From a virus, in UHGV virus genome UHGV-0043900: a DNA stretch of 39,203 bases. One strand, given 5' to 3'. The notes beneath the pieces are model-generated. The model did not search any database and had not been told where the DNA came from. It saw only the letters and a list, made by a program, of their open reading frames with translations. The position numbers and the translations under genes are program-made. Positions 2,695-34,786 of this stretch are shown here, piece after piece. The first letter of the stretch is position 1. The number at the start of each line of letters is the position of its first letter.

Positions 2695-3327
2695 TCATTC
2701 ATCGTTCGTTGCACGAACGCGCCTGATCTCCACTCTGGCAATCTGATCTGCTGGAATATAGGTTGCCAGAGCTCCCCAGTACTTATCAACCACGCCTTTA
2801 TACTCTTCCCATTCGTTACTGCCTGAAGGGCTGCTGTGCGTGACGTAAAGAACCATATCGCCTTTATTCCCCAGGGTAAACGGACCGTTAGGCCACTCTT
2901 CAAAGTTCCCTGGCAGTCGTGACATCATACCGGAACCATCGCGAAGAATCACTCTGACCTCGGTAACGCTGAAGCCTGTTTGATCAAACATTGCCTGCCA
3001 TGCTGAGCTGGTATCGTCAGACCATGAAATATCATTATTCCACAGTAATCTGTACATCCATTTGCGACCGTACCTGCGCCACCACGCACCGCATGTAACG
3101 GCACACAGAAGTGCTGGTGGTGTTGCCAGCCAGGCATTCAGACCTGCCCACATAACTGCCTGGTAAGCCATCATTGCTGTCAGGCCAAAAATCAGCGAAG
3201 AAAAAGTCACCTCAATGGGCTTGTGGTGATCCTTCAGTCCCACATTCGCAATAAAATACCCAATATAGCCACTGGTCAGGGTCACCAGTGTTGCCCATGG
3301 CAGATTTAACAACGAAACGTCAAACAT
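2695..3327 (-). CDS. Membrane protein (three predicted TM helices plus ~110-aa soluble C-terminal domain), unknown function; last gene of the early arm
   Basis: ORF 2695-3405 with start reassigned to the ATG at 3327 (MFDVSLL...), preceded by AGGGAG. Hydrophobic segments LPWATLVTLTSGYIGYFIANVGL, IEVTFSSLIFGLTAMMAYQAVMWAGL and WLATPPALLCAVTCGAWW. No family recognised. Confidence 0.6.
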   Translation of the reverse strand: MFDVSLLNLPWATLVTLTSGYIGYFIANVGLKDHHKPIEVTFSSLIFGLTAMMAYQAVMWAGLNAWLATPPALLCAVTCGAWWRRYGRKWMYRLLWNNDISWSDDTSSAWQAMFDQTGFSVTEVRVILRDGSGMMSRLPGNFEEWPNGPFTLGNKGDMVLYVTHSSPSGSNEWEEYKGVVDKYWGALATYIPADQIARVEIRRVRATNDE

Positions 3328-3441
3328 ATTTTCTCCCTGCATCCTGAATACTAAAGAAAGAGCATAAAAAAAGCACGGTAAGGGGTCTACCGTGCTTTTA
3401 TACAATAAAGAGATTTTTGAAAGGACTTTAACAAGCAGGAA

Positions 3442-3840
3442 TTATCTGGATTTGTTAACGTCTTTCGTCTCCTCTGGCAGATCTTCATCAAACAACCTGC
3501 CCTGCATCCGATCCAGTTCTTCTTTTCTGACCCGCTTAACCACGCTGTAGACCCACTGAAGCGAAACACCAAACTTGCGGGCCAGTTCGTGGTGGTTGCG
3601 TCCGTTAAACTCCCTGAAGATTTCCCGGTCGCGCTGACTGACCTTCCATACCATGCCCATCGGGAAATAAACGTTTTGCCCGCCCCAGACCTGCATCATT
3701 CGGTTCGCGACGGCCTGACCAATCTGGTCGGCAATTGCGGGCTCAATATCAATAATCTCGCGAACGGTCTCAGAGGTATGCTGTGCCAGTTCCACCAGGA
3801 GTTCCGGCCCTTTACTTCGAAACTGATTCAGGTCGCTCAT
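3442..3840 (-). CDS. mor: Mor/C-family transcriptional activator (middle/late gene activator)
   Basis: 132 aa; C-terminal HTH region REIFREFNGRNHHELARKFGVSLQWVYSVVKRVR matches the Mor pattern; sits directly after the GemA-like gene as in Mu. Confidence 0.7.
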   Translation of the reverse strand: MSDLNQFRSKGPELLVELAQHTSETVREIIDIEPAIADQIGQAVANRMMQVWGGQNVYFPMGMVWKVSQRDREIFREFNGRNHHELARKFGVSLQWVYSVVKRVRKEELDRMQGRLFDEDLPEETKDVNKSR

Positions 3841-8833: not shown

Positions 8834-10603
8834 TCAGTTGCCGTTAACAATGCTGATAACACTGCTGCGGACCGGCGTGGTCAGCGTGGCCATGACTTCA
8901 TCCAGTGCGGCTTCCGGTACGCCGTCCGGGTACTGTGCCGTTAACTGGCGGTAATGTTCCGGCGTCCAGGTAAGGCCGTTGGCGCTGAACTTATCGCGCA
9001 GGGCTTTCGCGGCCTCCACATGAGTCATGGGACGTTGTTCAGTGCGCGGCCCGCGTACGTCAGAGGCCTGACCACGCTTCGGCATATAGGCCGGAAGTGT
9101 GGCGTCATCAATATGTTTATACGGGTCAAGTCGTCCGCCGAACGGCAGTGCCTTCGCCTTGCGTGCGGCAGCTGCATCTGCGGCGTTGTCTGTACCGGTG
9201 ACCAGCGCTTCGGTTTCTTTTGCCGCCATCTGCGCCGGGGTTTCCGGCAGGGCTTTGTAACTTTCGCCAAATACCGCCGCGCCTTCAGCAAAGCCAAACT
9301 CGTTCTTTCTGACCTCTTCGACCAGGAAGAACGTCTCGTGGCCGTCCTCACCGGTCAGAACCACCTGTGCCACATCGCTGCGCCACGGGTTACGGGTAAT
9401 CATCAGTTTTTCACCGACCAGTACGCCCGGTACCGTTGATACGTCAAATTCAGTGCCCCGGAACGAGACACGAAGTTTTGGCGTGACTTTGCGGAGTTCT
9501 GGTGCCGCCACAGCCAGTTCACGACATACCTCAACGGAAGGCGCTTTTTTCAGCTGCTCAGCAGTAATCTTCAGCCAGATATCCGTGCGGGTTTTACCGT
9601 GGCGGCTGTGAACAGCCGTGGCGTTAAAGTGGCTGCGCCATTTCGCGGCCAGCGCGTTGAGTTCTTCCAGACTGTGAACCGGCCGGAACTTCAGACCCGG
9701 CTCCAGCTTGCGTTCGATAATGTCACGCGCCTTTTCCACCTGTCCGGTGGCGCGGGCGTTATGCGGCCTGTGCGCTATCAGGTCGATGCCCAGTGAGCGG
9801 CACATGTTTTTCGTCATACCCGCGGTGTTCGCCGAACCGGGGTCGAGATAGAGTATTTTCGGCACGCCGTGCAGCACGTCTGCGCCACCGCGCTCCTGCA
9901 TGGCGTTGATAAGCACAGAACACAGGTTCTCACCGGATTCCGCACCCGTCACATACTCAACGTAAATCCAGCCGCTGGCATGGTCGGTAATCTCGTAACT
10001 CCACACGCGGTCACTGGCGATACGGGCAAGGTTAGCGGGCTTGTTCTTGTAGAATTTCGCGCTGTCCATCACCTGCAGCCCTTTATGTCCATTGCTCAGG
10101 TAGTAAAGCGTGCATAGTGAGGCGTCAATCTGCCAGACATGATTGGGGTGCAGACTGGCCACTTCGGTATGCGGTGCAGGGGCATCCAGTTGTTCCGGGT
10201 GCAGGCCATAGTTACGCAGGGCACGACTGATGGCATCTTCGGACAACGGGAAAAACTCACCGGTGGTTTCATCTGTTCTGCCTGCGGAGATAAAGCCGTT
10301 AGCCCGCAGGGTTTCCACTGCATCCGCGATGGAATAAAGACGCTTACCGTTCTTGCGGGTGGCCTCACGCAGTGTGGCAGATATCAGCGCGGCTTCGTCG
10401 CGGGTCAGGGCGCTGCGCCCGGCATCGGCGCGTTTTTTGCGTTTATCAGTCACAGAGACCTCCTTCAGCCTGCGCAGCAGAGTGGCGCGGGACATGCCAA
10501 GTTCAGCACAGGCAGCGTCGTATATTGCACCGCGTTTACCATGCCCCGCGTCACGTGCCGCGCGGGCGACATAAACCAGTCGTTCAGTCAGGGCAGCATT
10601 CAT
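8834..10603 (-). CDS. DDE transposase A (rve/integrase-core superfamily, transposable-phage type)
   Basis: 589 aa; N-terminal HTH region and a central integrase-like catalytic core (HVWQIDASL ... YLDPGS ...). GGAGG RBS. Paired with the B ATPase. Confidence 0.85.
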   Translation of the reverse strand: MNAALTERLVYVARAARDAGHGKRGAIYDAACAELGMSRATLLRRLKEVSVTDKRKKRADAGRSALTRDEAALISATLREATRKNGKRLYSIADAVETLRANGFISAGRTDETTGEFFPLSEDAISRALRNYGLHPEQLDAPAPHTEVASLHPNHVWQIDASLCTLYYLSNGHKGLQVMDSAKFYKNKPANLARIASDRVWSYEITDHASGWIYVEYVTGAESGENLCSVLINAMQERGGADVLHGVPKILYLDPGSANTAGMTKNMCRSLGIDLIAHRPHNARATGQVEKARDIIERKLEPGLKFRPVHSLEELNALAAKWRSHFNATAVHSRHGKTRTDIWLKITAEQLKKAPSVEVCRELAVAAPELRKVTPKLRVSFRGTEFDVSTVPGVLVGEKLMITRNPWRSDVAQVVLTGEDGHETFFLVEEVRKNEFGFAEGAAVFGESYKALPETPAQMAAKETEALVTGTDNAADAAAARKAKALPFGGRLDPYKHIDDATLPAYMPKRGQASDVRGPRTEQRPMTHVEAAKALRDKFSANGLTWTPEHYRQLTAQYPDGVPEAALDEVMATLTTPVRSSVISIVNGN

Positions 10604-12603: not shown

Positions 12604-12637
12604 CCGGAAAGCATTGTGCTTTCCGGTTTTGTTTCAG
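12604..12637 (+). terminator. Rho-independent terminator between convergent repressor and Dam genes
   Basis: 10-bp perfect stem CCGGAAAGCA/TGCTTTCCGG with 3-nt loop, followed by TTTTGTTT. Confidence 0.5.
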
Positions 12638-13398
12638 AAGTTGCAGATTACCAGTTCACGGCGCGGCGTGGGTTTCCCCGCCAGACTGTAGTTGATATTC
12701 ACCGTCTGTATGTTCAGTTCAGTGAACACCCGACGCATCTGCGGAATGTCATTCACCGAGATAATCATCTTTCCTCTGATGCACCGTGCCAGTTCTGCGA
12801 GTAGTGTGTAGTTCTCTTCAGGAAAATCCACACCATAGCCTTCCGTCCCCAGATAGGGCGGATCACAGTAGAACAGCGTGTGCGGACGGTCATAACGCTT
12901 AATGCACTGGTGCCAGTCCATGTGTTCTATCACCGTTCTGGAAAGCCGCAGGTGTGCCGCTGACAGTTCTTCTTCAATCCGGAGCAGGTTGAAGCGTGGC
13001 GGGGAGGTGGTGGAGGTGCCGAAGCTGTGCTCTGCCACCTTGCCCCCAAACGCCTGCTTCTGGAGGTAGTAGAACCGTGCCGCACGCTGGATATCCGTCA
13101 GTGTTTCTTCCGGGGTGATCTGCTGCCATTTGTAGATCTGCCGGCTAACCAGCGCCCATTTGAATTGGCGGACAAATTCTTCCAGATGATGCTTTACTAC
13201 CCGATACAGATTTACCAGTTCACCGTTGATATCGTTAATGACTTCGATCTTGCTGGGAGTCTTGAGAAAATAAAGTGCTGCTGCGCCGCAGAATGGCTCC
13301 ACATAGCAGGTATGGAGTGGGAACTGGGGCAGAATGTGTTTGGCCAGACGACGTTTTCCCCCAATCCAGGGGACGATGGGTAAAGATTGTTCTTTCAT
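12634..13398 (-). CDS. Orphan DNA adenine methyltransferase (Dam/D12-class N6-adenine MTase)
   Basis: N-terminal IVPWIGGKRRLAKHIL, FCGAAAL AdoMet motif and catalytic DPPY (LFYCDPPYLGTEGYG). Start set at the internal ATG 13398 (MKEQSLPIVPW). No restriction partner evident. Confidence 0.8.
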   Translation of the reverse strand: MKEQSLPIVPWIGGKRRLAKHILPQFPLHTCYVEPFCGAAALYFLKTPSKIEVINDINGELVNLYRVVKHHLEEFVRQFKWALVSRQIYKWQQITPEETLTDIQRAARFYYLQKQAFGGKVAEHSFGTSTTSPPRFNLLRIEEELSAAHLRLSRTVIEHMDWHQCIKRYDRPHTLFYCDPPYLGTEGYGVDFPEENYTLLAELARCIRGKMIISVNDIPQMRRVFTELNIQTVNINYSLAGKPTPRRELVICNF

Positions 13399-13445
13399 TA
13401 TCTGTAAGCCTTTTTCATTAGATGAAAATGCGATAGGCTTCCCTT

Positions 13446-13457
13446 GTTCTCGAGAAC
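13446..13457. promoter_or_regulatory. Perfect 12-bp palindrome GTTCTCGAGAAC in the Dam / paralog-1 divergent intergenic region (candidate operator)
   Basis: The duplicated cassette carries a different perfect 12-bp palindrome at the equivalent position (14081-14092), so dyad symmetry is preserved despite sequence change. Confidence 0.35.
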
Positions 13458-13500
13458 GGAAGAGCCTCGGTTGACTCACAGCTCATACCTGTAAGTTGAT

Positions 13501-13550
13501 GACTCGCCTTGTGTTCGCTGCACAAGGTGAGTCGCTCTTTTCATGTTATT
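13501..13550 (+). terminator. Strong hairpin plus U-rich tract upstream of paralog 1 (terminator or attenuator-like element)
   Basis: 13-bp stem GACTCGCCTTGTG/CACAAGGTGAGTC (one G-U pair), 7-nt loop, then GCTCTTTTCATGTTATTTG. The cassette copy at 14138-14181 has a different stem with the same architecture. Confidence 0.45.
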
Positions 13551-13592
13551 TGCATATTTCATGGGCGACAATTAAAGGGAGTTACTAATACC

Positions 13593-13973
13593 ATGGCCCC
13601 AAAAAATATTGAGCGGTTTAATGAAATAGTTGGTGAGATATTTGGGAGACTCTACGAATCTTTCCCCGTCAAAATTGATATAAAGGCAGTTGATATCGTT
13701 AGACAGAATGAACTTACTTTTTTTCTTGATACCGTAGACTGGCTTAAAAACAGTGGCTATTTAATCGGGGCGCGTAGTTCTGGGGGGATCCACAACGCAG
13801 TGCTAACGGCTAAAGGTCTTGAGGTATTAAACGCTACGCCTGGAAGTCTGGAAAAACCGTTGGGGGCCAGAATATCTGACTCTATAAAAATTGAAGGGAA
13901 AGAAGCGTTGCGATCACTGGTTAGCCAGACTCTAGGAATAGGTCTGCAATATATGTCTCGTGGTCTTATGTAA
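13593..13973 (+). CDS. Small protein of unknown function (127 aa), paralog 1 of a duplicated pair
   Basis: Internal ATG of ORF 13509-13973 with RBS AAAGGGAG. Shares FxxIxGxIFxRL, DTxxWL and VLTxKxLxxLNATP blocks with the protein at 14439-14843. AT-rich codon usage. Confidence 0.6.
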   Translation: MAPKNIERFNEIVGEIFGRLYESFPVKIDIKAVDIVRQNELTFFLDTVDWLKNSGYLIGARSSGGIHNAVLTAKGLEVLNATPGSLEKPLGARISDSIKIEGKEALRSLVSQTLGIGLQYMSRGLM

Positions 13974-14033
13974 TATCGCAAGGCAGCGTTTGCCACCAAT
14001 CCATGGAACGATGGGTAATGTCTGCGTTTTCAT
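13932..14033 (-). pseudogene. Remnant 5' end of a second Dam methylase gene (about 20 conserved codons)
   Basis: Reverse strand encodes MKTQTLPIVPWIGGKR, homologous to the start of the intact Dam (MKEQSLPIVPWIGGKRR), then diverges into the 3' end of paralog 1 and stops after 33 codons. Confidence 0.55.
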
Positions 14034-14080
14034 AATCTGTAAACATTTTACAATTATTAAAAATATGGCAGGCTAGTCTG

Positions 14081-14092
14081 GTCTCGCGAGAC
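14081..14092. promoter_or_regulatory. Perfect 12-bp palindrome GTCTCGCGAGAC (candidate operator of the duplicated cassette)
   Basis: Positional equivalent of GTTCTCGAGAAC at 13446-13457, with the same flanking conserved block CCTCGGT-G-CTCACAGC. Confidence 0.35.
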
Positions 14093-14137
14093 TGACTGAA
14101 CCTCGGTCGGCTCACAGCCACTTCTGTGGGACGATGG

Positions 14138-14181
14138 CCAGCCCGGTGGGTCCGAAGCACCGGGCTGGTCGTTCTTTCATG
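14138..14181 (+). terminator. Hairpin plus U-rich tract, second copy of the cassette leader element
   Basis: 11-bp perfect stem CCAGCCCGGTG/CACCGGGCTGG, 9-nt loop, then TCGTTCTTTCATG. Confidence 0.45.
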
Positions 14182-14224
14182 ATGCGGCAGGGATGAAGTG
14201 ATTTCTGTTAATGTGGTTTAGGGA

Positions 14225-14440
14225 TTATCCGGGGCGATTTTCTGACCTTATCTGGTCCAGGGCATAAGTAATACCTTCTGCAAAAACAGAAGTATCAAAC
14301 TGCTTTTGTATTTCCTGAAAATGAACTGTGGCACGACAGACACTCAGTTCTCCGCGATGTAACCGGATAATATCTTCCAGAACATTGTTCACTGCTTCAG
14401 CACGGCGCTGATGTTCTGTTAACGTTAATCGGGGATTCAT
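14225..14440 (-). CDS. Hypothetical 71-aa helical protein
   Basis: ORF whose ATG overlaps head-to-head with the ATG of the 14439 gene (CATGATG). No recognisable motif. Confidence 0.4.
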   Translation of the reverse strand: MNPRLTLTEHQRRAEAVNNVLEDIIRLHRGELSVCRATVHFQEIQKQFDTSVFAEGITYALDQIRSENRPG

Positions 14441-14843
14441 GATGCACTCCTTAAATGATGATTTTTATGCACTCACCGGCAAAATATTCTGCCGATTACT
14501 GAACACGCATCCGGCACCTCAGGTTTTGATTTATTCTGGTTTTTTCGATATCCCGGACCAGGTTGATCACGACCAGAAAAAGTGCCGGTATTTTATTGAT
14601 ACGCTGATATGGCTTCGGGATAACAGCTATATTCGTTACTCTCAGTTGCTGGCTGTGGGAGCGGCTGATGTCGTCCTCACGGAAAAAACGCTCCGTCTGC
14701 TCAATGCCACGCCGACCCTTCTGCAGCCCCGGCCCGCACCATTTAAAGAGTCACTTCTGGATGCAGTAAAAACCGGTGAAAATGCAGTCATCGCTGAACG
14801 CGTATCCCGGATTATGAGTTACGTGTTTAATGAACGTAAGTGA
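14439..14843 (+). CDS. Small protein of unknown function (134 aa), paralog 2 of the duplicated pair
   Basis: RBS GGGGA then ATG-ATG. Roughly 25-30% identity by eye to paralog 1 over conserved blocks. 3' end overlaps the convergent P-loop gene by 25 nt. Confidence 0.6.
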   Translation: MMHSLNDDFYALTGKIFCRLLNTHPAPQVLIYSGFFDIPDQVDHDQKKCRYFIDTLIWLRDNSYIRYSQLLAVGAADVVLTEKTLRLLNATPTLLQPRPAPFKESLLDAVKTGENAVIAERVSRIMSYVFNERK

Positions 14844-15562
14844 GGTTTATCCGCTGTCTGCATAATCCCGATAGCCAGTGCGAGGGGAAGTAATTCCGGG
14901 GAAGTTCTTTCAAACAGCGATTCCCATTCTCCTCTCGCCATCACTCTGTCCAGCCCGCCCTCCAGTTGCATTTCAGCAATCTTCCTGATTTCCCGGAACA
15001 ACGCCTCTTTGATCACTTCATGCTCAGCTTTATTTTCCGGTGTCAGAATGTATTCGTCGAAGAACCGGGGAGGCTGGTTAACGGGGATTGTGTTCACCGG
15101 GATGTGTTCCTGCTTCCCGTACTTCGGGGCCGAAAAACATTCTGTTGGCTGACCAGTGAGTTTACGTAGCTCCTTCATGAGCAGCTCCTGATCGTAAACT
15201 GCCATCAGTGCCGCAATAGTGGCATGCAGTGCATCGGGCAGTGTCCATGGGTACTGGCCTGTGGGGCATATAACATCCAGCAGTGCATTCGTCCGGAGAA
15301 TGCATCCCTCGCTGTATGACATCGGAGTTTTTTCTGTGTATTCCTCCAGTCGGATAAGTGTGCCTGCCCGTGGTTTCTGCCATGTGCTCAGATCACCCCC
15401 ACTCATACGGCGCTCACCGTCCACGTCTGCGGCGTCGACAATGACGCTGTTTCCGAATTCCTGTTTCACCACTTCCTCTATCCGCGCCAATATGTAACTT
15501 TTACCGCTGCCCACAGGACCGGACACGGTGACAGTGATGACCGGATTCAGTGTCTGCGTCAT
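14819..15562 (-). CDS. Small P-loop NTPase/kinase-like protein (247 aa), unknown function
   Basis: N-terminal Walker A VTVSGPVGSGKSY, followed by hhhhD-like SVIVDAADVDG. Strong RBS GAGGAG. Resembles small nucleotide-kinase or zeta-toxin-like folds in layout only. Confidence 0.7.
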   Translation of the reverse strand: MTQTLNPVITVTVSGPVGSGKSYILARIEEVVKQEFGNSVIVDAADVDGERRMSGGDLSTWQKPRAGTLIRLEEYTEKTPMSYSEGCILRTNALLDVICPTGQYPWTLPDALHATIAALMAVYDQELLMKELRKLTGQPTECFSAPKYGKQEHIPVNTIPVNQPPRFFDEYILTPENKAEHEVIKEALFREIRKIAEMQLEGGLDRVMARGEWESLFERTSPELLPLALAIGIMQTADKPHLRSLNT

Positions 15563-15634
15563 ATCGTATTCTCCTCTGTGAATAATTCATCGTTTATCCT
15601 GCACATCCCGTATCCCCGGCTCTCTTAACGCGCT

Positions 15635-15673
15635 TTAAAATCCTTCGCGCCCTGTATTTGTGATGCTGTCTCC
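15635..15673 (+). promoter_or_regulatory. Candidate activator-dependent late promoter of the lysis operon
   Basis: TTAAAATC-N23-CTGTCTCC with inner CTGTATTT, about 20 nt upstream of the holin ATG. The same bipartite motif at identical spacing occurs at 23030-23068. Confidence 0.4.
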
Positions 15674-15692
15674 ACCAGATAAGGAGACACAC

Positions 15693-16043
15693 ATGAAAAA
15701 CCTGAAAACATTCATTCCCCCTGTTAAAAAACCTCGCCTCAGCGGCTGGCTGCTGACCTCAGTGCTGTTGCTGGGCACCATCGCTCTGGTCTCACCACAG
15801 CAACTGCCTGTTGTGATCTACAAGCTGGCACTCATCACGCTGGCAGCAGTGCTGGGTTACTGGCTTGACCGTTCGCTCTTCCCCAAAGCCCGTCCCGGTC
15901 AGTACCTGAAACATGACGACAGGCTGATGGCTGAAGGGCGTTTCCCGGTACAGACCGGCCTTCACCTGGTGTTTTCTGCTGCGTTAATCCGCCGTGCACT
16001 GATTGTTGCAGCGGTCTGCCTGGCTGTTGCGATGGGGCTTTAA
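15693..16043 (+). CDS. Putative holin (three predicted TM segments)
   Basis: Internal ATG of ORF 15660-16043 with RBS AAGGAGA; 116 aa, three hydrophobic helices; immediately upstream of the endolysin. Confidence 0.55.
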   Translation: MKNLKTFIPPVKKPRLSGWLLTSVLLLGTIALVSPQQLPVVIYKLALITLAAVLGYWLDRSLFPKARPGQYLKHDDRLMAEGRFPVQTGLHLVFSAALIRRALIVAAVCLAVAMGL

Positions 16044-16045
16044 TC

Positions 16046-16786
16046 ATGAACTGGCCGCAGATCACCTGGATTGTATGCATGTCCCTGAAACTGGCTTTCG
16101 AAGCCTTTCGGGTCTTCATCAGAACCGAACGCCTGTCAGTCCGCGCCGGGACCTTTCTGGTTCATATGGCATGGGTATTCTTTGTCGCAATATTGCTCTG
16201 GTGTGGCGGCTTTTTCAGCCAGGCATGCGCAGCACAACCTCCGCAGGCTGCGCTGCAGTATCGCGATGATGTGATCCGTAATGCCCGGCTTGAATGGGGA
16301 CTGTCTGCGCCGGTGGCCGACTTTGCCGCGCAACTGCATCAGGAAAGCGGCTGGCGACCTGATGCGGTCTCACCGGCTGGCGCTCAAGGACTGGCGCAGT
16401 TCATGCCTGCCACTGCCGACTGGATAAGCCAGTTGATACCGATGCTGAGCAGTCGTGAGCCGTTTAATCCTGCATGGGCTATCCGGGCGCTGGTCAGCTA
16501 TGACCGCTGGCTGTGGCAGCGCGTCAGCGCCGCCAACGACTGCGAGCGTATGGCCATGACACTGTCGGGCTATAACGGTGGTCTGGGCTGGGTACAACGG
16601 GACAGGCGGCTTGCATCACAGAAAGGTCTGGACAGCACCCGCTGGTTTGGTCATGTCGCCACGGTGAATGCCGGACGCAATGCGGCCAGCTGGCGGGAGA
16701 ACCGTCATTATCCGCAACGCATTCTGCGTGAGCTGGCACCGCGATATCTCACATGGGGAGGCAGCAGTTGTGTGGCATCTGGTTAA
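16046..16786 (+). CDS. Endolysin: lytic transglycosylase (SLT domain) with hydrophobic N-terminal signal or SAR-like segment
   Basis: SLT motifs EWGLSAPVADFAAQLHQESGWRPDAVSPAGAQGLAQFMPATADWI; N-terminal hydrophobic stretch MAWVFFVAILLWCGGFFSQACAA. Confidence 0.8.
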   Translation: MNWPQITWIVCMSLKLAFEAFRVFIRTERLSVRAGTFLVHMAWVFFVAILLWCGGFFSQACAAQPPQAALQYRDDVIRNARLEWGLSAPVADFAAQLHQESGWRPDAVSPAGAQGLAQFMPATADWISQLIPMLSSREPFNPAWAIRALVSYDRWLWQRVSAANDCERMAMTLSGYNGGLGWVQRDRRLASQKGLDSTRWFGHVATVNAGRNAASWRENRHYPQRILRELAPRYLTWGGSSCVASG

Positions 16787-17420
16787 AAAACTGCCATGGC
16801 GCGGCATTCTTCTGGCCATTCTTATCAATGCCTTTCTGATCGGCCTGTATGCCATGGGATACAGAAGTGGTCATGACTCTGCAAAGCGTGACGGTGATAC
16901 CGCGCTCAGTCAGTTGCAGTCAGCATTTGACGCGTACAAAACGGAGCAGGCAATGCTTGAGAACGCTGCGTTGCGAGCATGGGCAAAACGGTATCAGGAG
17001 CAGGTGGCCGCCGGGCAGCAGGCTGAAGCCAGTTACCTTGAGCAGATTGCTCAACTGGAGAGCCGGAACAAACAACTACAGGGGCAAATTAACGATGTCA
17101 CACAGCGCTGGATTGATGAAAAAGGTAAGAGCCATCCCATTGAGTGCGTGTTTACTCGCGGTTTCGTGCGCCAGTACAACGCCGCACTCGGATATGACAA
17201 CGCATCCGTCGACACCGGTCATTCAGACGCAACTGCCGCCGCTGGCACCGGCACTGGCGCAGCGACCGGGCAACCTGAAACCGCTGACGCCCGGTTACGC
17301 AATTCGGGTGTCTCCCAGCGTGACGTCCTCGCCAATATCATCGACAACGCAGGGCAATGTCGTCGCTGGCGGAACCAGATAAACGCGCTGCTGAATGAAC
17401 GGGAAGGATTACAGAAATGA
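16770..17420 (+). CDS. Rz-like i-spanin (type II membrane protein with periplasmic coiled coil)
   Basis: GTG start with GGGGAGG RBS inside ORF 16668-17420; N-terminal TM (WRGILLAILINAFLIGLYAMGY) then coiled-coil; overlaps the endolysin 3' end. Confidence 0.65.
   Translation: MWHLVKKLPWRGILLAILINAFLIGLYAMGYRSGHDSAKRDGDTALSQLQSAFDAYKTEQAMLENAALRAWAKRYQEQVAAGQQAEASYLEQIAQLESRNKQLQGQINDVTQRWIDEKGKSHPIECVFTRGFVRQYNAALGYDNASVDTGHSDATAAAGTGTGAATGQPETADARLRNSGVSQRDVLANIIDNAGQCRRWRNQINALLNEREGLQK
17116..17382 (+). CDS. Rz1-like o-spanin lipoprotein, embedded in the +1 frame of Rz
   Basis: Internal ATG of ORF 16849-17382 giving MKKVRAIPLSACLLAVSCAS... with a lipobox-like LAVSC and a Pro-rich mature region; entirely inside the Rz gene. 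Confidence 0.6.
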   Translation: MKKVRAIPLSACLLAVSCASTTPHSDMTTHPSTPVIQTQLPPLAPALAQRPGNLKPLTPGYAIRVSPSVTSSPISSTTQGNVVAGGTR

Positions 17421-17743
17421 CACTGCAGGTTGAATTCTGGACGGTGGTGAGTTTTCTGCTCACCTTCATGGGGTTTGTGGGAGGGCTCGCCAAATGGCTG
17501 TTCAGTAAAGCGGAAGAACGCCAGACTGCACGATTCGCCTCTCTTGAGCAGTCACTGCAGCAGTCCGCCTCCAACTGGGGCGAGCTGGAAAAAGAATTTA
17601 TGCGATTTAAGGCGGATTTACCGCTGAATTATGTCCGTCGCGAGGATTATATCCGTGGCCAGACAGTTATCGAGGCCAAACTGGACGCGCTTTACAACAA
17701 ACTGGAAGTGGTACAGCAGTACCGCAATACCGGAGGTCAATAA
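17417..17743 (+). CDS. Hypothetical protein with N-terminal TM helix (108 aa)
   Basis: ATG overlaps the Rz stop (ATGA); TM segment WTVVSFLLTFMGFVGGLAKWLF; lies between lysis and terminase genes. Confidence 0.5.
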   Translation: MTLQVEFWTVVSFLLTFMGFVGGLAKWLFSKAEERQTARFASLEQSLQQSASNWGELEKEFMRFKADLPLNYVRREDYIRGQTVIEAKLDALYNKLEVVQQYRNTGGQ

Positions 17744-18054
17744 TGGTCGATATTACCCGGGTACGCCGCGAATCCCTGCGCTGGAGTCTGCTGGTTGCCC
17801 TGAACAAAACCCGCCCTTACACCGCCAGCGAGACGTTGCTGCTGGAAGTGTCCCGCGCCATCTACCCGGACACCACGCAACTGGAGCTGCGCCGTGAGCT
17901 TGATTACCTGGCAGATCGCAAAATGGTGGAACTGGAGAGGAGACCGTCCGGTGACTGGTTTGCCGATCTGAGCCGCCTTGGGGTGGATATTGTGGAATAC
18001 ACCGTGGAATGCAGCCCCGGTATTGCCCGCCCGGAAAAATACTGGAGTGAGTGA
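17743..18054 (+). CDS. Hypothetical late protein (103 aa)
   Basis: Translationally coupled ORF between lysis and terminase genes. Confidence 0.5.
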   Translation: MVDITRVRRESLRWSLLVALNKTRPYTASETLLLEVSRAIYPDTTQLELRRELDYLADRKMVELERRPSGDWFADLSRLGVDIVEYTVECSPGIARPEKYWSE

Positions 18055-18056
18055 TT

Positions 18057-18599
18057 ATGGGACGTCGCAGCAGCATTGATTCTCTGCCGAAGGAGGTCCG
18101 TCGCTGGATTGAGCGGGCACTGACGGAGAATAATTTCACCGGCTATGCAGAGCTTGAAAGCCTGCTGAAGGAAAGGGGTTACAGCATCACCCGCTCTTCC
18201 CTGCAGCGGTTTGGCTACAAAATGGAGCAGCAACTGGCCCGTGTGCGGGCAGCAACCGAGGCGGCACGTCTGCTTGCTCGGGAGGCCGGAGACGATCCTG
18301 ATGACCGTTCAGCCGGGCTGATAACCCTCGTCCAGACCGAAATGACGGACATCCTGATGCGCCTGCAGGAGTCGCGGGAAAATGACGATCCCTTCGCCCG
18401 GGCAAAACTGCTGGCAACGGCTTCAAAAAATATCGCCACACTGACCCGCGCCTCGGTCACCCTCAAGCGCTATCAGGCAGAAGTCAGGGAGAGGGTTGAA
18501 CGTGCTGCCGCCGCTGCCGAGAAAATTGCCCGTAAGGGCGGGCTGTCTGCGGATGCTGTACAGGCACTGCGACGGGAAATTCTGGGAGTGGCATCATGA
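18057..18599 (+). CDS. Terminase small subunit (Mu gp27-like)
   Basis: N-terminus MGRRSSIDSLPKEVRRWIERALTENNFTGYAELESLLKERGY typical of Mu-like small terminase proteins; directly upstream of the large subunit. Confidence 0.65.
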   Translation: MGRRSSIDSLPKEVRRWIERALTENNFTGYAELESLLKERGYSITRSSLQRFGYKMEQQLARVRAATEAARLLAREAGDDPDDRSAGLITLVQTEMTDILMRLQESRENDDPFARAKLLATASKNIATLTRASVTLKRYQAEVRERVERAAAAAEKIARKGGLSADAVQALRREILGVAS

Positions 18600-20119
18600 T
18601 GAACATCCCTTCGCATATCCCGGACACAACAGCGTGTGCAGCCCCACCGGTGCTGCTGCCTTATCAGCAACGCTGGGTGGCAGATGCCTCTCCGCTTAAG
18701 GTGATGGAAAAGAGCCGTCGTACCGGTATTACATGGGCTGAGGCATCCGATAACGTACTGACCGCCGCCTCTTCTGCGCCAGCAGGCGGGATGAATGTGT
18801 ATTACATCGCCTATAACCAGGACATGACCGTCGAATACATTCAGGCGTGTGCGATGTGGGCACGGGCATTCAACTATGCGGCCAGTGAAATTGAAGAAGG
18901 ATTCTGGGAAGAGGACGACGACGACAAACACATCAAGACTTACACCATCAAATTTCCTGACTCCGGCTTTCGTATTGTTGCGCTCTCCAGCCGCCCGTCT
19001 AACCTGCGTGGCCGTCAGGGTATTATTGTTATCGACGAAGCGGCGTTCCATGAGCAACTGGACGAACTGCTGAAAGCGGCGCTGGCGATGCTTATCTGGG
19101 GGGGAAAGGTACGCGTTATCTCCACCCATAACGGTGACGACAATCCGTTCAATACGCTTATCGGGGATATCCGTACCGGACGTCAGGGAGGCAGCGTACA
19201 TCGCATCACTTTCCGGGAAGCCGTATCTGAGGGGCTGTTCCGGCGCGTCTGTCTGCGCACCGGGAAGGAATGGTCGGAGGCATCCGAGCAGGCCTGGATG
19301 GCATCGGTGTACAAATTCTACGGTGCCGGCGCATCCGAAGAGCTTGACTGTATTCCGGCCAACGGTGGCGGTGCCTGGCTGTCCCGTGCCCTGATAGAGT
19401 CCCGCATGTCCGCTGATACGCCGGTATTGCGTCTGACCTGTCAGGAAGGTTATGAACTGCTGTCTGATGAGGTTCGCTTCCGCGAGACGCAGGACTGGCT
19501 TGATGAGCATCTGAAACCATTGCTGGAGGCACTCCCCACTGATGCCCGCTCTTTCCTGGGGCGCGACTTTGGCCGCAGCGGTGATTTGTCGGTGGACTAT
19601 CCCCTGCTGCAGGAGAAGAACCTGGTACGACGCGTGCCATTTGTACTGGAGCTGCGTAACGTGCCGTTCAGACAGCAGGAGCAAATCACCTGGTATCTGA
19701 TGGATGGACTGCCCGGTCTGCTGGGTGCAGCGTTTGATGCCCGTGGTAATGGTGCCTATCTGGCTGAATACGCCATGCAGCGCTACGGCTCCAGCCGGGT
19801 TCAGCAGGTGATGCCAACCGAAGGCTGGTACCGGGAACATATGCCTCCGGTCAAAGCTGCACTGGAAGACGGTAACCTGGTGGACTTACCAAAAGATGAA
19901 GACACACTGGATGACCTGCGGGCCGTTCAGGTGGTGAACGGTGTCCCCCGCGTGCCGGAGCAACGCTCAAAAGCAAAGGCTGATGGTGGTAAACGCCACG
20001 GGGATTCAGCCATCGCACTGGCGCTGGCGTATTTCGCCAGCCGTGAAATTAACAAAGGGCCGGTGAAAGCAAGCTCACGACGACGTCGTCAGGCGGCCCG
20101 TATACTGGAGGGATTCTGA
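18596..20119 (+). CDS. Terminase large subunit (Mu gp28-like)
   Basis: 507 aa; position and size; ATPase-like region GRQGIIVIDEAAF; followed by the portal gene. Confidence 0.85.
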   Translation: MMNIPSHIPDTTACAAPPVLLPYQQRWVADASPLKVMEKSRRTGITWAEASDNVLTAASSAPAGGMNVYYIAYNQDMTVEYIQACAMWARAFNYAASEIEEGFWEEDDDDKHIKTYTIKFPDSGFRIVALSSRPSNLRGRQGIIVIDEAAFHEQLDELLKAALAMLIWGGKVRVISTHNGDDNPFNTLIGDIRTGRQGGSVHRITFREAVSEGLFRRVCLRTGKEWSEASEQAWMASVYKFYGAGASEELDCIPANGGGAWLSRALIESRMSADTPVLRLTCQEGYELLSDEVRFRETQDWLDEHLKPLLEALPTDARSFLGRDFGRSGDLSVDYPLLQEKNLVRRVPFVLELRNVPFRQQEQITWYLMDGLPGLLGAAFDARGNGAYLAEYAMQRYGSSRVQQVMPTEGWYREHMPPVKAALEDGNLVDLPKDEDTLDDLRAVQVVNGVPRVPEQRSKAKADGGKRHGDSAIALALAYFASREINKGPVKASSRRRRQAARILEGF

Positions 20120-21615
20120 TGGCGAGGGGTATCTGGGTTTCACCCGATGAATTTGTTGCTTTTTCTGAGTCTCAGAAATCACTGACCGCGCAGATTGCCT
20201 CGCGCAGCCGCTCCATCGACTTTTTCGGGCTGGGGATGTACCTGCCTAACCCTGACCCCATTCTGAAATCTCAGGGCCGGGATATACGTATCTATCGCGA
20301 GCTGCGTACCGACCCGCTGGTCGGCGGCTGCATCCGCAGGCGTAAAGCGGCGGTCAAATCACTGGAGCGCGGCCTTGAACGAGGTCATGCCCCGGCGCGG
20401 GTATTCAGTTTCATCCGGGATATGCTTGACGATCTGGATCTGTCCCGCATCATCGGCGAGATGACCGACGCCGTTCTCTACGGGTATCAACCTTGTGAGA
20501 TCATGTGGGGACGCTCTGTTAAATCCTGGGCCATTGCCGATATCGTGGGTAAACCCCCTGAGTGGTTCCAGTTCGACAACGACAACCTGTTGCGCTTTCG
20601 TGCTAAAGACGCCGGGCTGGAAGGTGAGCCGGTACCGCTGAACAAGTTCGTGGTACCGCGTCAGGATGCGACCTACGATAACCCATATGGCTTCCCTGAT
20701 CTGTCGATGTGTTTCTGGCCCGTGACATTCAAAAAAGGCGGCATGAAGTTCTGGGTACGTTTTGCCGAGAAATACGGCTCTCCGTGGGTTATCGGCAAGC
20801 ATCCGCGTGGTACCGCACAGGGCGAGATTGACCTGCTGCTGGACTCCATGGAGGCAATGGTGGAAGACGCGGTGGCCGCTATCCCTGACGATTCATCCAT
20901 TGAAATTAAGGAGGCCGCAGGCAAGGCCGACAGCAGCGATATTTATCAGAACCTGATCACGCTTGCCCGCAGTGAAATCTCCATCGCCCTGCTGGGGCAG
21001 AACCAGACCACCGAGGCCAACAGTAACCGCGCCTCCGCGCAGGCCGGACTGGAGGTCACCGATGATATCCGCGATGCGGATGCAGATATCGTGGAAAGTG
21101 CGGTGAATCAGGCCATCAGGATGGCGGTATCGATGAACTTTGGCGATGTGGCCAGCCCCGTCTGGAAGATGTGGGAACAGGGAACGGTCGACGATATCCA
21201 GGCAACCCGCGACGAGAAACTCAGCCGCGCTGGTGTGGTCTTCACCTCGCAATACTTCAAACGGGAGTACCAGCTGCAGGACGGCGATATTGACGAGACA
21301 CCACCGTCAGAACGCGAGAAGAACATGCTTCCGCTGTCATTTGCCGAGGCGATTGATGCCGATATTCAGGCTCAGCAGCAGCTTGACGACGCGCTGGACA
21401 TTCTGATGAACGGAGGCGTGTTAACTGGCACGCTGGAATCCGTCCTGGCAGCTCTGTTCAAGCGGGTCGAAAACGGGGTTAACCCGTCTGAGCTGCTGGG
21501 CGAACTGGCGGAGCTCTACCCTCAGATGAACACGGACGATCTGCAGGAACGGCTGGCCCGCATTCTCTTTGTGGCAAATATCTGGGGGCGTCTGCATGAG
21601 CATGACAACGGCTGA
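20119..21615 (+). CDS. Portal protein (Mu gp29-like)
   Basis: 498 aa; N-terminal region DIRIYRELRTDPLVGGCIRRRKAAV typical of Mu-like portals; terminase-portal-F gene order. Confidence 0.85.
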   Translation: MARGIWVSPDEFVAFSESQKSLTAQIASRSRSIDFFGLGMYLPNPDPILKSQGRDIRIYRELRTDPLVGGCIRRRKAAVKSLERGLERGHAPARVFSFIRDMLDDLDLSRIIGEMTDAVLYGYQPCEIMWGRSVKSWAIADIVGKPPEWFQFDNDNLLRFRAKDAGLEGEPVPLNKFVVPRQDATYDNPYGFPDLSMCFWPVTFKKGGMKFWVRFAEKYGSPWVIGKHPRGTAQGEIDLLLDSMEAMVEDAVAAIPDDSSIEIKEAAGKADSSDIYQNLITLARSEISIALLGQNQTTEANSNRASAQAGLEVTDDIRDADADIVESAVNQAIRMAVSMNFGDVASPVWKMWEQGTVDDIQATRDEKLSRAGVVFTSQYFKREYQLQDGDIDETPPSEREKNMLPLSFAEAIDADIQAQQQLDDALDILMNGGVLTGTLESVLAALFKRVENGVNPSELLGELAELYPQMNTDDLQERLARILFVANIWGRLHEHDNG

Positions 21616-22417
21616 ACTGGCGTACTGCATGACGCTTCCCCCGAAGCGGGCAGTCAGTTACCTGAAGTCCAAAGGGTATCAGATTACCTGGGACTGGGAA
21701 GAAATGTGGCAGGAAGCCCATGCCCGCGCCTTTACCGTCGCTAAAGTGACCCGCCTGGATATCCTGGAAGATATTCGTGGGGCACTGCAGCAGGCTGTCG
21801 ATGAAGGAAAAACCGATCGCTGGTTCCGGCAGGAGCTGGAGCCGGTGCTGAAGCGTAAGGGATGGTGGGGACCACGTGACACGACTGACCCGGTAACGGG
21901 TGAGCCGGTCACCATTCAGCAGGGCAGCACGTGGCGGCTCGACACCATCTTTCGCACCAATATGTCCGTACTCTACAGCGCCGGTCGTTGGGCGGAACAG
22001 ATGGAAAACGTCGACGACAGGCCGTACTGGATGTATACCGGCATCAACGACAGCCATACCCGCAGGAGCCATCTGGCGCTGCATGGTCTGGTGCTGAGCT
22101 GGGATGACCCGTTCTGGCAGGCATTTTACCCGCCGAACGGCTGGCGTTGCCGCTGTAGTGTGATTGCCCTGAGTGCGGCGGATGTCCGTGCCCGTGGACT
22201 GAAGGTTATCAGCTCCGGCTCTGCCATGGGCCAGGAACTGAAACTGGTCTCAGAGAAAACCGGCGAAATGCGGAACGTGGCCACCTTTAATACCGGCACC
22301 ACGAAGGTGACCACCGACGTCGGCTGGTCTTATGCACCGGGGGCAGCATACCGTCCCGACCTGGCCCGCTATCAGGGTACGCTTCAGCCACTGGCACAAC
22401 AGGAACTGAGAGGATAA
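21596..22417 (+). CDS. Head morphogenesis protein (Mu F-like, gp30)
   Basis: Follows the portal; ORF 21569-22417 trimmed to the ATG cluster near 21596. Start position uncertain. Confidence 0.7.
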   Translation: MSMTTAELAYCMTLPPKRAVSYLKSKGYQITWDWEEMWQEAHARAFTVAKVTRLDILEDIRGALQQAVDEGKTDRWFRQELEPVLKRKGWWGPRDTTDPVTGEPVTIQQGSTWRLDTIFRTNMSVLYSAGRWAEQMENVDDRPYWMYTGINDSHTRRSHLALHGLVLSWDDPFWQAFYPPNGWRCRCSVIALSAADVRARGLKVISSGSAMGQELKLVSEKTGEMRNVATFNTGTTKVTTDVGWSYAPGAAYRPDLARYQGTLQPLAQQELRG

Positions 22418-22419
22418 CA

Positions 22420-22878
22420 ATGGCTTCCGATAACCTGGTCAGTATCACCATTAACGATAAATCCCTGCGCCGGAGCCTCCGTGCGCTGGATCTTGCTGCC
22501 ACAGACCTGGAGCCCGCGATGCGCAAAATCGCCGGAACCTTGCTGGCGGAAACACAGTTTAACTTTCTTGATGAGGGGCGTCCGGGGTGGATACCCTCGC
22601 TGGCAGCAGAAGAACGTGACGGACAGACACTGCAGGATACCGGGCGTCTGATGGGGTCAGTATCAACCGACCATGACGACCGGCAGGCTGTTGTGGGGAC
22701 CAACGTTGTTTACGGTGCCATTCACCAGTTCGGGGGTAAAACGGGGCGTAATGAGTCTGTTGAACTTCCGGCCCGCCCGTTCCTGCCGGTGACGGGGGAT
22801 GGAGAACTACAGCCTGAAGTGGTAATCCCCATCCTCGATACCATTGTCCGCCATCTTGAATCAGCGGCCCGTCGCTGA
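22420..22878 (+). CDS. Virion morphogenesis protein (Mu G-like)
   Basis: 152 aa in the conserved position after F, with a terminator downstream. Confidence 0.6.
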   Translation: MASDNLVSITINDKSLRRSLRALDLAATDLEPAMRKIAGTLLAETQFNFLDEGRPGWIPSLAAEERDGQTLQDTGRLMGSVSTDHDDRQAVVGTNVVYGAIHQFGGKTGRNESVELPARPFLPVTGDGELQPEVVIPILDTIVRHLESAARR

Positions 22879-22924
22879 GGTTTCTCTCTTCAGGCGGGTG
22901 ATTTATCATTGCCAGCGAATGAGG

Positions 22925-22966
22925 GGCTGTATTACCTTTATAAAGGCTTTACAGCCTCTGTTTTAT
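22925..22966 (+). terminator. Rho-independent terminator after gene G
   Basis: Near-perfect 32-bp palindrome GGCTGTATTACCTTTATAAAGGCTTTACAGCC followed by TCTGTTTTAT. Confidence 0.45.
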
Positions 22967-23029
22967 AACCGCCTCCGGTTCACCGCATTGCTTTCCCTGT
23001 CCTTCACTCCTGATGTTTTCTAAAGCAGA

Positions 23030-23068
23030 TTAAAATCGCCGGGCCTGCATTTCTCACAAACTGTCTCC
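23030..23068 (+). promoter_or_regulatory. Candidate activator-dependent late promoter of the head operon
   Basis: TTAAAATC-N23-CTGTCTCC with inner CTGCATTT; same motif pair and 31-bp offset as at 15635-15673. Confidence 0.4.
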
Positions 23069-23092
23069 GACAACATAACGCGGGACAGCAAA

Positions 23093-24208
23093 ATGCCAGC
23101 CATTCACATTTTTAAAGCCGGTACTCATACCGATATGCACGGCAAAAAACTGCCGTTCACGCCAGACGATCTTGCCGCCTGCGTGAAAGCCTATGACCCG
23201 TCCGTCCATGAAGCTCCACTCGTGATTGGTCATCCCAGAACGGAAGACCCGGCGTGGGGCTGGGTGAAAGCCCTGTCGCTCAGCGGCGCCGATCTGATGG
23301 CAGAGCCTGCCCAGCTGGACCCGCAGTTTGCTGAGATGGTCACCGACGGGCGATTCAAAAAGGTATCCGCCTCTTTCTACCTCCCGGATTCACCGTCCAA
23401 TCCGAAGCCCGGCGTGCTCTACCTTCGCCATGTGGGCTTTCTCGGGGCACAGCCACCTTCCGTCAAAGGGCTGAAACAGGTGTCCTTCAGTGAGCAGGAA
23501 GAAGGTGTGGTGGAGTTCGCCGACTGGCAGGCCATCACGAATGCCTCCCTGTGGGGAAAGCTGCGCGATTTTCTGATCGCCCGCTTCAGTCTGGACGAGG
23601 CAGAAAAAGTCCTGCCGGAATGGCAGCTCAACAGTCTGCGCGAAGAGGCGTACCGCGACACACCGTCGCAGGATGCAGCAGGTGCGCAATTCAGTGAGAC
23701 AGGCCAGGTGCTGTCTTCCAAAAGTAACGAGGAATCATCGATGACAAAAGAAGAGATTGAAGCCCTTCAGGAGGAGAACCGCCGCCTGAAGCAGCAGGCT
23801 GCTGATCGCGATGCGCGTGATGCACAGGTCAGACAGGATCAACTGCATAAGGACAATGTGGCCTTTGCAGAAAAACTGGTCGCAGAGGGTCGTCTGGCTC
23901 CCCGCGCCTCCTCCGTGGTGGTTGCCCTGCTGGATGCCGTCGCCGGTGGCGACAAGCCGGTGGAGTTTGCTGAGGGGGAAAGCCGCACACCGCTGGCCAC
24001 CGCCTTCCGTTCATTGCTCTCCGACGGGGAGCCGGTGATGAACTTCGCCGAACAGGCCACAAAGGATCGTGTCGGCGACGCGGTGAAGGTGGATGTGGCG
24101 GAGTTTGCAGAAGCCGATCCTGAGCGTCTGGCCCTGCATCAGAAAGCAGTGGCCCTGTCCAAAAAAGAAGGCATCAGCTATGAGGCTGCTGTCGCACGCT
24201 GCCTGTAA
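23093..24208 (+). CDS. Prohead protease / scaffold protein (Mu I-like)
   Basis: 371 aa; N-terminal protease-like region and charged coiled-coil C-terminal half (EEIEALQEENRRLKQQAADRDARDAQ); located before the major capsid gene. Confidence 0.7.
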   Translation: MPAIHIFKAGTHTDMHGKKLPFTPDDLAACVKAYDPSVHEAPLVIGHPRTEDPAWGWVKALSLSGADLMAEPAQLDPQFAEMVTDGRFKKVSASFYLPDSPSNPKPGVLYLRHVGFLGAQPPSVKGLKQVSFSEQEEGVVEFADWQAITNASLWGKLRDFLIARFSLDEAEKVLPEWQLNSLREEAYRDTPSQDAAGAQFSETGQVLSSKSNEESSMTKEEIEALQEENRRLKQQAADRDARDAQVRQDQLHKDNVAFAEKLVAEGRLAPRASSVVVALLDAVAGGDKPVEFAEGESRTPLATAFRSLLSDGEPVMNFAEQATKDRVGDAVKVDVAEFAEADPERLALHQKAVALSKKEGISYEAAVARCL

Positions 24209-28909: not shown

Positions 28910-28916
28910 TATCACA

Positions 28917-28940
28917 GGGGCTCCGGCCCCTTTCTTCTTA
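28917..28940 (+). terminator. Rho-independent terminator (GC stem plus T-tract) within the tail gene cluster
   Basis: GGGGCTCCGGCCCC stem-loop followed by TTTCTTCTT. Confidence 0.5.
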
Positions 28941-29007
28941 ATCTCCTTTAATATCCGTCACGTCCACCGCCAGACATACTGCCCTGAACTTACACAGGAG
29001 CACGATC

Positions 29008-34731: not shown

Positions 34732-34786
34732 AGTTTCTTAAACGCCTTTAATATCGGCGTTCCCTTCCGGGGGCAATACTGCTCCT

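Follow-up and report, generated by a model that had tools for sequence, protein, structure and literature searches.

The 39,203-nucleotide stretch of DNA analysed here, UHGV virus genome UHGV-0043900 (the window), is a BcepMu-type (Bcepmuvirus-like) transposable prophage of Escherichia coli. It contains four sites, referred to as P_lys, P_I, P_E and P_W, that are very likely the late promoters of this prophage and that would be switched on by its single Mor/C-family activator. The four sites align without gaps as (T/C)TAA-N6(GC-rich)-TTAAWATC-N19-nAWRCT-G, a layout made up of a 16-bp dyad, WATC directly downstream of it, a spacer of fixed length and free sequence, and a -10 hexamer (nAWRCT) followed by G, with no -35. 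A first-pass annotation of the window had described two late promoters and had proposed that the bipartite motif they share, TTAAAATC-N23-CTGTCTCC, is the binding site of a Mor-type activator. Both promoters stand and belong to a set with four members of the kind. The proposal of a common Mor-type site fits the late operons downstream, the missing -35, the Mor/C geometry and the one Mor-family protein encoded; the bipartite motif is not itself that site, which is more likely the dyad (T/C)TAA-N6-TTAA. Such a set is the late-promoter set expected of a Mu-like phage and belongs to a known promoter class, and the only mildly surprising elements in it are hairpins opposed to the Shine-Dalgarno regions at P_lys and P_I and a predicted leaderless start at P_W.

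The bipartite motif is present at 15635-15673 and 23030-23068 on the plus strand with identical spacing, exactly as first described. Its ends lie 20 nt before the holin ATG at 15693 and 25 nt before the protease/scaffold ATG at 23093, and both copies front late operons, one for lysis and packaging and the other for the head. A motif scan of the whole window returned these two matches only, even when 3 mismatches were allowed, with 0.16 expected from shuffles. When the left octamer was relaxed by one base, two further sites surfaced in intergenic gaps (28948 and 34748); these belong to P_E (28938-28981) and P_W (34738-34781), which carry TTAATATC in place of TTAAAATC. The earlier remark that there are no other copies is therefore correct for the exact bipartite string and incorrect for the family.

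The genomic setting is that of a Mu-like element. The nearest phage records are Escherichia phage PhiKM (classified in Bcepmuvirus), Klebsiella phage KP12 and Phi06_2974 B, and related prophages were found in 610 of 5426 complete E. coli genomes (~11%). The lysogen E. coli IGC_RcoliRes_1.1 (NZ_CP054662) matches the window at 100% identity over 15400-15900, the stretch around P_lys. An early operon runs leftward from ~12078 to ~3400 and encodes a Ner-like helix-turn-helix protein, the transposase, Gam, GemA and a Mor-family protein, followed by a terminator hairpin. The late genes occupy the plus strand from 15693 on. The P_lys operon opens with the holin gene (15693-16043; Pfam Holin_2-3, E=1e-41) and an SLT endolysin gene, and continues with genes for the spanins, terminase, portal, F and G. 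The P_I operon encodes the protease/scaffold, the capsid, and the tail sheath and tube; its first gene (23093-24208, 371 aa) is the counterpart of Mu I and BcepMu gp32, the head protease/scaffold, and is called gene I below. The genes downstream of P_E and P_W are gpE-like and gpW-like, respectively, identities that were taken from the annotation of PhiKM and BcepMu.

At P_lys, the dyad TTAA-cgcgct-TTAA (15625-15638, distal half-site 15625-15628), the proposed Mor site, is kept before the holin genes of relatives, and is followed by the -10 GATGCT and its G (15662-15668, plus strand), with a predicted transcription start (+1) at about 15674 (A) and a -35 match of 1/6. P_I combines the dyad CTAA-agcaga-TTAA (23020-23033, distal half-site 23020-23023) with the -10 CAAACT and its G (23057-23063, plus strand; predicted +1 at about 23069), and its copy of TTAAAATC spans 23030-23037; the same CTAAagcagaTTAA precedes the I homologs from Escherichia-type to Photorhabdus/Xenorhabdus prophages. 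P_E reads TTAA-tctcct-TTAATATC-N19-CATACT-G (28938-28981, plus strand, 39.9 bits in the weight matrix described below), with a predicted +1 at about 28987 and the ATG of the gpE-like tail chaperone gene at 29008. P_W reads TTAA-acgcct-TTAATATC-N19-AATACT-G (34738-34781, plus strand, 40.8 bits), and its predicted +1 is the ATG of the gpW-like baseplate gene at 34787. The N6 spacers (cgcgct, agcaga, tctcct and acgcct) are GC-rich, and the hexamers GATGCT, CAAACT, CATACT and AATACT have A at position 2 and T at position 6 in all four cases. With its centre 30.5 bp ahead of the -10, the dyad would fall at -42.5 to -43.5, depending on the predicted +1. No -35 hexamer is present at any of the four sites, where 0-2 of 6 bases match at a spacing of 16-18 bp, and a scan for the sigma-70 consensus returned no promoter at these positions.

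These arrangements are far from random expectation. TTAA-N6-TTAA occurs three times in the 39-kb window (15625, 28938 and 34738) against 0.42 expected, the fourth site, P_I, having CTAA. The string TAA-N6-TTAAWATC occurs four times against 0.01 expected, and TTAAWATC-N20-nAWRCT four times against none in 300 simulations. Other readings of the same bases were tried and rejected: TTAAAA cannot serve as a -35, as it is 21 bp from the -10 and nothing like a -35 is found at 16-18 bp, and a -10 placed further downstream, at GATAAG or CATAAC, lacks conservation and would come at the expense of the Shine-Dalgarno sequence. Two of the promoters are directly preceded by terminator-like hairpins on the plus strand. 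The first, with a T-run, lies after the G-like gene and immediately upstream of P_I (22944-22957); the second is a GC hairpin immediately upstream of P_E (28916-28931) whose T-run merges into the distal half-site of that promoter. With hairpins ahead of P_I and P_E, the late region looks like four promoter-to-terminator units.

Comparative data support the same anatomy. For this purpose, 37 prophage loci were retrieved with the major capsid protein, from Enterobacterales (Mixta, Pantoea, Erwinia, Photorhabdus, Xenorhabdus, Brenneria, Pectobacterium and others) and from Betaproteobacteria (Jeongeupia, Chromobacterium and an Oxalobacteraceae metagenome-assembled genome). TTAA-N6-TTAA is found again at the same four map positions in these loci, and upstream of homologs of the four genes the dyad and the -10 stand at constant spacing, with the sequence between them free. 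The half-sites are invariant, as are A at position 2 and T at position 6 of the -10. Counted over 80 unique homologous sites, with offsets measured from the proximal TTAA, conservation covers two T's at -13/-12, both half-sites, A at 5, and T/G and C at 6-7. In the -10 region it extends to A28 (78/80), A30 (66/80), C31 (74/80), T32 (78/80) and G33 (77/80). An A stands at offset 39 in 51 of the 80 and is the likely +1.

A weight matrix trained on the relatives only, with the window excluded, gave 35-41 bits for the four sites of the window and no more than 14.8 for any shuffle. Scanned over 727 kb of related prophages on both strands, the same matrix gave, at a threshold of at least 18 bits, 101 matches on the four expected positions and 7 on positional equivalents, with no others, so that none falls inside a gene. 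Frequent occurrence in coding regions, which the first-pass annotation had named as an outcome that would refute it, is thus not seen, and this check came out in favour of that annotation. In the Burkholderia phage BcepMu, the four best plus-strand matches precede gp21 (holin), gp32 (the Mu I equivalent), gp41 and gp49 (gpW).

The candidate activator is encoded at the far end of the early operon. A 132-aa Mor/C-family protein (3442-3840, minus strand; Pfam Mor PF08765, E=1e-43) is specified by the last conserved gene of that operon, directly after gemA. Its similarity to Mu Mor (1rr7, E=1e-9) and to Mu C (9l0x, E=4e-9) is about equal, and a phmmer search against all six-frame open reading frames of the window found this one Mor-like frame and no second Mor/C paralog. 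The protein is 56% identical to BcepMu gp01, and the helix-turn-helix stretch ELARKFGVSLQW is identical in the two, which would fit their shared TTAA half-sites if, as is presumed here, helix and half-site correspond. The helices of Mu Mor and C differ from that of the window protein, and the half-sites of the Mu late promoters differ as well.

The model, which draws on homology with Mu Mor and C, is as follows. The Mor-family protein, produced from the far end of the early operon, would bind the dyad centred about 42.5-43.5 bp upstream of the start site, and the bound protein would recruit sigma-70 RNA polymerase through the alpha subunit's C-terminal domain (alpha-CTD), sigma region 4 and the beta flap. 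All late operons would be turned on in one step. Cryo-electron microscopy has shown Mor/C tetramers in contact with these same three elements (bioRxiv 10.1101/2025.05.02.651988).

The region just downstream of mor was considered as a Mor-type middle promoter and rejected, as the degenerate dyad TTAA-N6-TTCA found there (3431-3418, minus strand) scores 4 bits, has the wrong distance to a -10 and coincides with a terminator hairpin. Directly after the mor stop (3373-3431, minus strand), the order is TTAA-N6-TTCA, TATAAA and then the hairpin AAAGCACGGTA...TACCGTGCTTT, which is probably the terminator of the early operon. The 236-aa open reading frame listed at 2695-3405 probably has its true start further downstream.

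At P_W, the start codon itself coincides with the predicted start site. The ATG of the gpW-like gene (34787) follows the -10 by exactly 7 nt, at offset 39 from the proximal TTAA, and no Shine-Dalgarno sequence occurs within 12 nt of it. The same arrangement, with the ATG at offset 39-40 and no Shine-Dalgarno sequence, is found in 12 unique relatives, including Photorhabdus-type prophages, and in BcepMu gp49. This suggests that the gpW-like gene is read from a leaderless mRNA beginning at the predicted +1. In betaproteobacterial members the I gene has an ATG at offset 39-42 from the proximal TTAA, and may be leaderless too; BcepMu gp32 is annotated with a start 12 nt further upstream, inside the -10.

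At P_lys and P_I, the promoter region is instead complementary to the leader. CTGTCTCC can pair with the Shine-Dalgarno region of the first gene at both. In the P_lys hairpin (15667-15689, plus strand), TGTCTCC (15667-15673) pairs with GGAGACA (15683-15689), the holin Shine-Dalgarno region; in the P_I hairpin (23061-23088, plus strand), the Shine-Dalgarno region of gene I lies within CG(C)GGGACAG (23079-23088), the partner of CTGTCTCCG (23061-23069). The free energies (dG) of the two are -10.5 kcal/mol (z-score -2.9) and -10.7 kcal/mol (z about -2.9) when folding begins at the -10, and -0.5 and -2.2 when it begins at the predicted +1. The spread over the folds, in which relatives behave alike, is -10 to -19 kcal/mol for a start at the -10 and about 0 to -5 for one at the predicted +1. 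A search of the window against Rfam families returned no match.

The P_I stem is also maintained by compensatory change. Over its 9 pairs, 95.7% of cells were paired across 13 distinct sequences, compared with 31-50% in slid controls; 4 of the 9 pairs changed on both sides, and none of 500 shuffles did as well. The Photorhabdus stem, ACTGCCTCTATTA-acg-TAATAGAGGCAGT, is an example of such a change. For the P_lys stem, 90% of cells were paired in 17 relatives, against 35-49% in slid controls.

The position of the 5' arm, at about -8 to +1 relative to the predicted start, implies that the transcript of the promoter itself would not form the hairpin and that only RNAs entering from upstream could. 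Read-through RNAs would then fold the hairpin and hide the ribosome site, and transcripts started at the promoter would stay open. Phage Mu provides a homologous case. Its late start sites have been mapped with S1 nuclease, their positions being encoded in the design of primers 20 nt downstream of the start (PMC4461284). Hairpins at Mu Plys (2445-2492) and PI (10019-10065) have dG values of -13.9 (z -3.0) and -14.7 kcal/mol (z -5.3). Their stems begin at the CUG that ends the -10, the 5' arm reaches the mapped start site, and the structures are lost when the RNA is folded from the start. The 3' arm covers the lys AUG at Plys and abuts the I ribosome site at PI. No published description of hairpins in the Mu lys or I leaders was found in the searchable literature.

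Silencing of read-through RNAs at P_lys and P_I can be put forward as a possible but tentative step, one for which belief falls somewhat short of an even balance. A wider version, in which late promoters from Mu to the BcepMu group make translation of the first gene depend on where the RNA starts (through the arms at P_lys and P_I, the weaker one at P_E and the leaderless P_W), is likewise tentative and, if anything, a shade less probable. Start-dependent translation as a control layer for late genes had no description in the searchable literature. If it operates, it would shield the lysogen from leaky holin expression.

Several points weigh against the interpretation as a whole. No experimental start sites, footprints or expression data for BcepMu-type phages were found in the searchable literature. 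The distance from dyad centre to -10 is 30.5 bp here and 31.5 bp in the four late promoters of Mu. The half-site is TTAA here and ATAA/TTAT for Mu C, so the assignment to Mor rests on architecture and gene content and draws on no known recognition code. At P_I the distal half-site departs from TTAA, reading CTAA, with ATAA or GTAA in some relatives; the sites of Mu are imperfect as well. Regarding the hairpins, covariation at P_lys is uninformative, as the 17 relatives vary too little; the hairpin at P_E is weak (z -1.9); and an insulation of gene I from read-through has no evident biological reason.

One alternative places the hairpins within the promoters' own mRNA. The true start would then be further upstream, and the hairpin would either control translation as an operator or stabilise the 5' end, and a factor would have to open it, as Com does with the mom mRNA. 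Since the start sites in the window are predicted, and the hairpins are conserved and cover the Shine-Dalgarno regions, this deserves consideration; it is nevertheless unlikely. The 80 unique sites have no conserved -10-like signal upstream of offset 27, the homologous hairpins of Mu, where late starts are mapped, are cut by the +1, and no Com-like gene was found among the window proteins scanned.

It is quite unlikely that the dyad is bound by another regulator, whether a phage protein from the variable region between repressor and holin or a host factor, with Mor acting elsewhere. Binding of Mor to the dyad is itself a prediction, and P_lys does adjoin uncharacterised genes, namely the phrog_2266 paralogs (13509-13973 and 14439-14843), a phrog_4490 gene and the gene of a 247-aa phrog_3787 protein. 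These genes are not kept across the family, however, as BcepMu, KP12 and E. coli variants carry different ones, whereas the dyads and the Mor gene are both conserved. The combination of a 16-bp dyad, a GC-rich 6-bp spacer, a fixed distance to the -10 and no -35 is a specific signature of Mor/C promoters (PMC4390567, PMC2582627). Furthermore, the early operator region contains no dyad, so the dyad is not an operator of the repressor or of Ner.

Recognition of the whole bipartite motif by a protein, with CTGTCTCC and an inner element included and the two promoters set apart from the rest, is very improbable. Both octamers are identical at identical spacing, and in Mu the promoters of lys and I likewise have an additional match of 10 bp between them (PMC4461284). 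The octamers dissolve, however, when they are read against the common layout. TTAAAATC consists of the promoter-proximal half-site, TTAA, and the next four bases downstream, and so covers the right half of the dyad only. CTGTCTCC takes in the CT that closes the -10, the conserved G, and then the discriminator TCTCC. The dyad and the -10 are also present at P_E and P_W, but GCCCTG and GCTCCT stand there in place of GTCTCC, which excludes CTGTCTCC from the common activator site. In relatives the CTGTCTCC region co-varies with its downstream partner across loops of varying length, as expected of RNA pairing and not of a protein site. The inner element CTG(T/C)ATTT, which the first-pass annotation had taken as common to both sites, could not be upheld: it sits at offset 17 in one site and 15 in the other, a shift of 2 bp, only 6 of 23 spacer bases are identical, and in the 80 unique sites no position from offset 8 to 26 exceeds about 0.5 bit. 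A functional role for it was rejected on these grounds.

Chance likeness or a recent local duplication without function, which has the small copy number in its favour and nothing else, is effectively refuted by the comparative data, given two motif copies against 0.16 expected, four copies of TAA-N6-TTAAWATC against 0.01, a spacer that shares too few bases (6 of 23) for a duplication, and the conservation of the sites before the corresponding genes in phages ranging from those of E. coli to those of Burkholderia.

Beyond the four promoters, a weaker fifth match, CTAA-accaca-TTAACAGA-N19-CATCAT-G (14178-14221, minus strand, 23.2 bits), lies upstream of a dam-methylase remnant, and another (13542-13585, minus strand, 14.2 bits) precedes the intact dam gene (12634-13479, minus strand). 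The maximum in 60 simulations was 12.7 bits. In PhiKM the equivalent of the 14178-14221 site scores 21.7 bits at 30849 (minus strand) and stands directly before an intact dam. A strong leader hairpin follows each of the two matches. The 14178-14221 site is absent from the KP12/E. coli 571 variant and is therefore not general. The dam-upstream site is a candidate late-type promoter only; it recalls the C-dependent mom promoter of Mu and is a possible analogue of Pmom. The surrounding DNA (13509-14843) is a local duplication in which phrog_2266 paralogs (13509-13973 and 14439-14843, plus strand) each face a dam start, in one case that of the intact gene and in the other that of a 33-aa N-terminal remnant (13932-14033, minus strand; MKTQTLPIVPWIGGKR...).

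Some neighbouring features were also recorded. The second of these paralogs, of 134 aa (14439-14843, plus strand), and the 247-aa phrog_3787 gene (14819-15562, minus strand) are convergent with a 25-bp overlap (14819-14843). A distance of 63 bp separates the P_lys dyad from the start of the 247-aa gene on the opposite strand, and this gene has no good late-type -10 (6 bits). As the dyad is palindromic, it was considered as a promoter for this divergent gene as well; the matrix score of only 6.1 bits leaves that role unsupported. Just outside the left end of the prophage region, a 764-aa ClpB/ClpV-like double AAA+ ATPase is encoded at 50-2344 (minus strand), probably as a host or cargo gene.

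These results offer a concrete candidate regulon and recognition sequence for the Mor homolog of Bcepmuvirus-type phages, TTAA-N6-TTAA at a fixed distance from an nATACT-G -10, and prophages of this type are also present in many other Enterobacterales and Betaproteobacteria. No description of this recognition sequence was found in the searchable literature, nor was any published account of late promoters in BcepMu-type phages, in a literature that excludes the 2004 BcepMu paper. The data suggest a two-step programme, early and late, run by one Mor/C protein, as against the three steps of Mu. The hairpins, which occur also at the mapped Plys and PI of Mu, and the leaderless gpW start suggest a simple way to tie translation to the correct start site.

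Among the closest known systems is the C-dependent late transcription of Mu. The Mu C site is a 16-bp imperfect dyad centred at -43.5, and the four late promoters have a -10 and no -35 (PMC2582627); bases immediately downstream of the dyad are also required, and the dyad overlaps the -35 region (PMC2582627). Plys, PI, PP and Pmom resemble the window set in being about four in number, in having a -10, no -35 and a 16-bp dyad, and in that bases downstream of the dyad matter. In both phages the first two late promoters front a lysis gene and the I protease/scaffold gene. The -10 regions TAGACTG (Plys) and CAAACTG (PI) of Mu resemble nAWRCT-G, and the CAAACTG of P_I is identical to that of Mu PI. 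The annotated overlap of terminator and promoter at Mu Pm and Plys is similar to the merger of T-run and half-site at P_E. The differences lie in the half-sites, which are ATAA(C)/TTAT in Mu and TTAA in the window, and in the spacing, as the proximal ATAA is 24 bp from the -10 in all four Mu late promoters and the window value is 23 bp. The later promoters of the window front P2-type tail genes (gpE-like and gpW-like), whereas those of Mu front P and mom. Mu also has both Mor and C, with a middle stage, and the window has one Mor/C-family protein and hence no separate middle stage.

The Mor-dependent middle promoter Pm of Mu provides a second comparison. Its Mor site consists of two 5-bp inverted repeats around a GC-rich 6-bp spacer, 16 bp in all, spans -51 to -36 and replaces the -35 (PMC4390567, PMC4287176). 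The window sites share the short inverted repeats, the GC-rich 6-bp spacer and the 16-bp length, and the activator gene follows gemA in both phages. Pm, however, drives the C gene in a cascade, whereas the window sites would drive the structural and lysis operons directly, and the recognition sequence differs.

For the hairpins, a precedent exists in IS10/Tn10, where fold-back inhibition of read-through transcripts was described by Davis, Simons & Kleckner (1985), as cited in PMC13181058. There, an inverted repeat has one arm ahead of the start site of the element itself and the other over the translation start signals, so that only RNAs begun outside can hide the ribosome site; the prophage layout, as deduced from sequence, covariation and predicted starts, would resemble it. 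The gene concerned in IS10 is a transposase gene, and here phage late operons are concerned. For the leaderless start, the comparison is with phage lambda, whose cI gene is expressed from PRM as a leaderless mRNA. Both cI and the gene at P_W have their ATG at +1 (predicted, for P_W) and no Shine-Dalgarno sequence, cI being a repressor gene and the gpW-like gene a late structural one.

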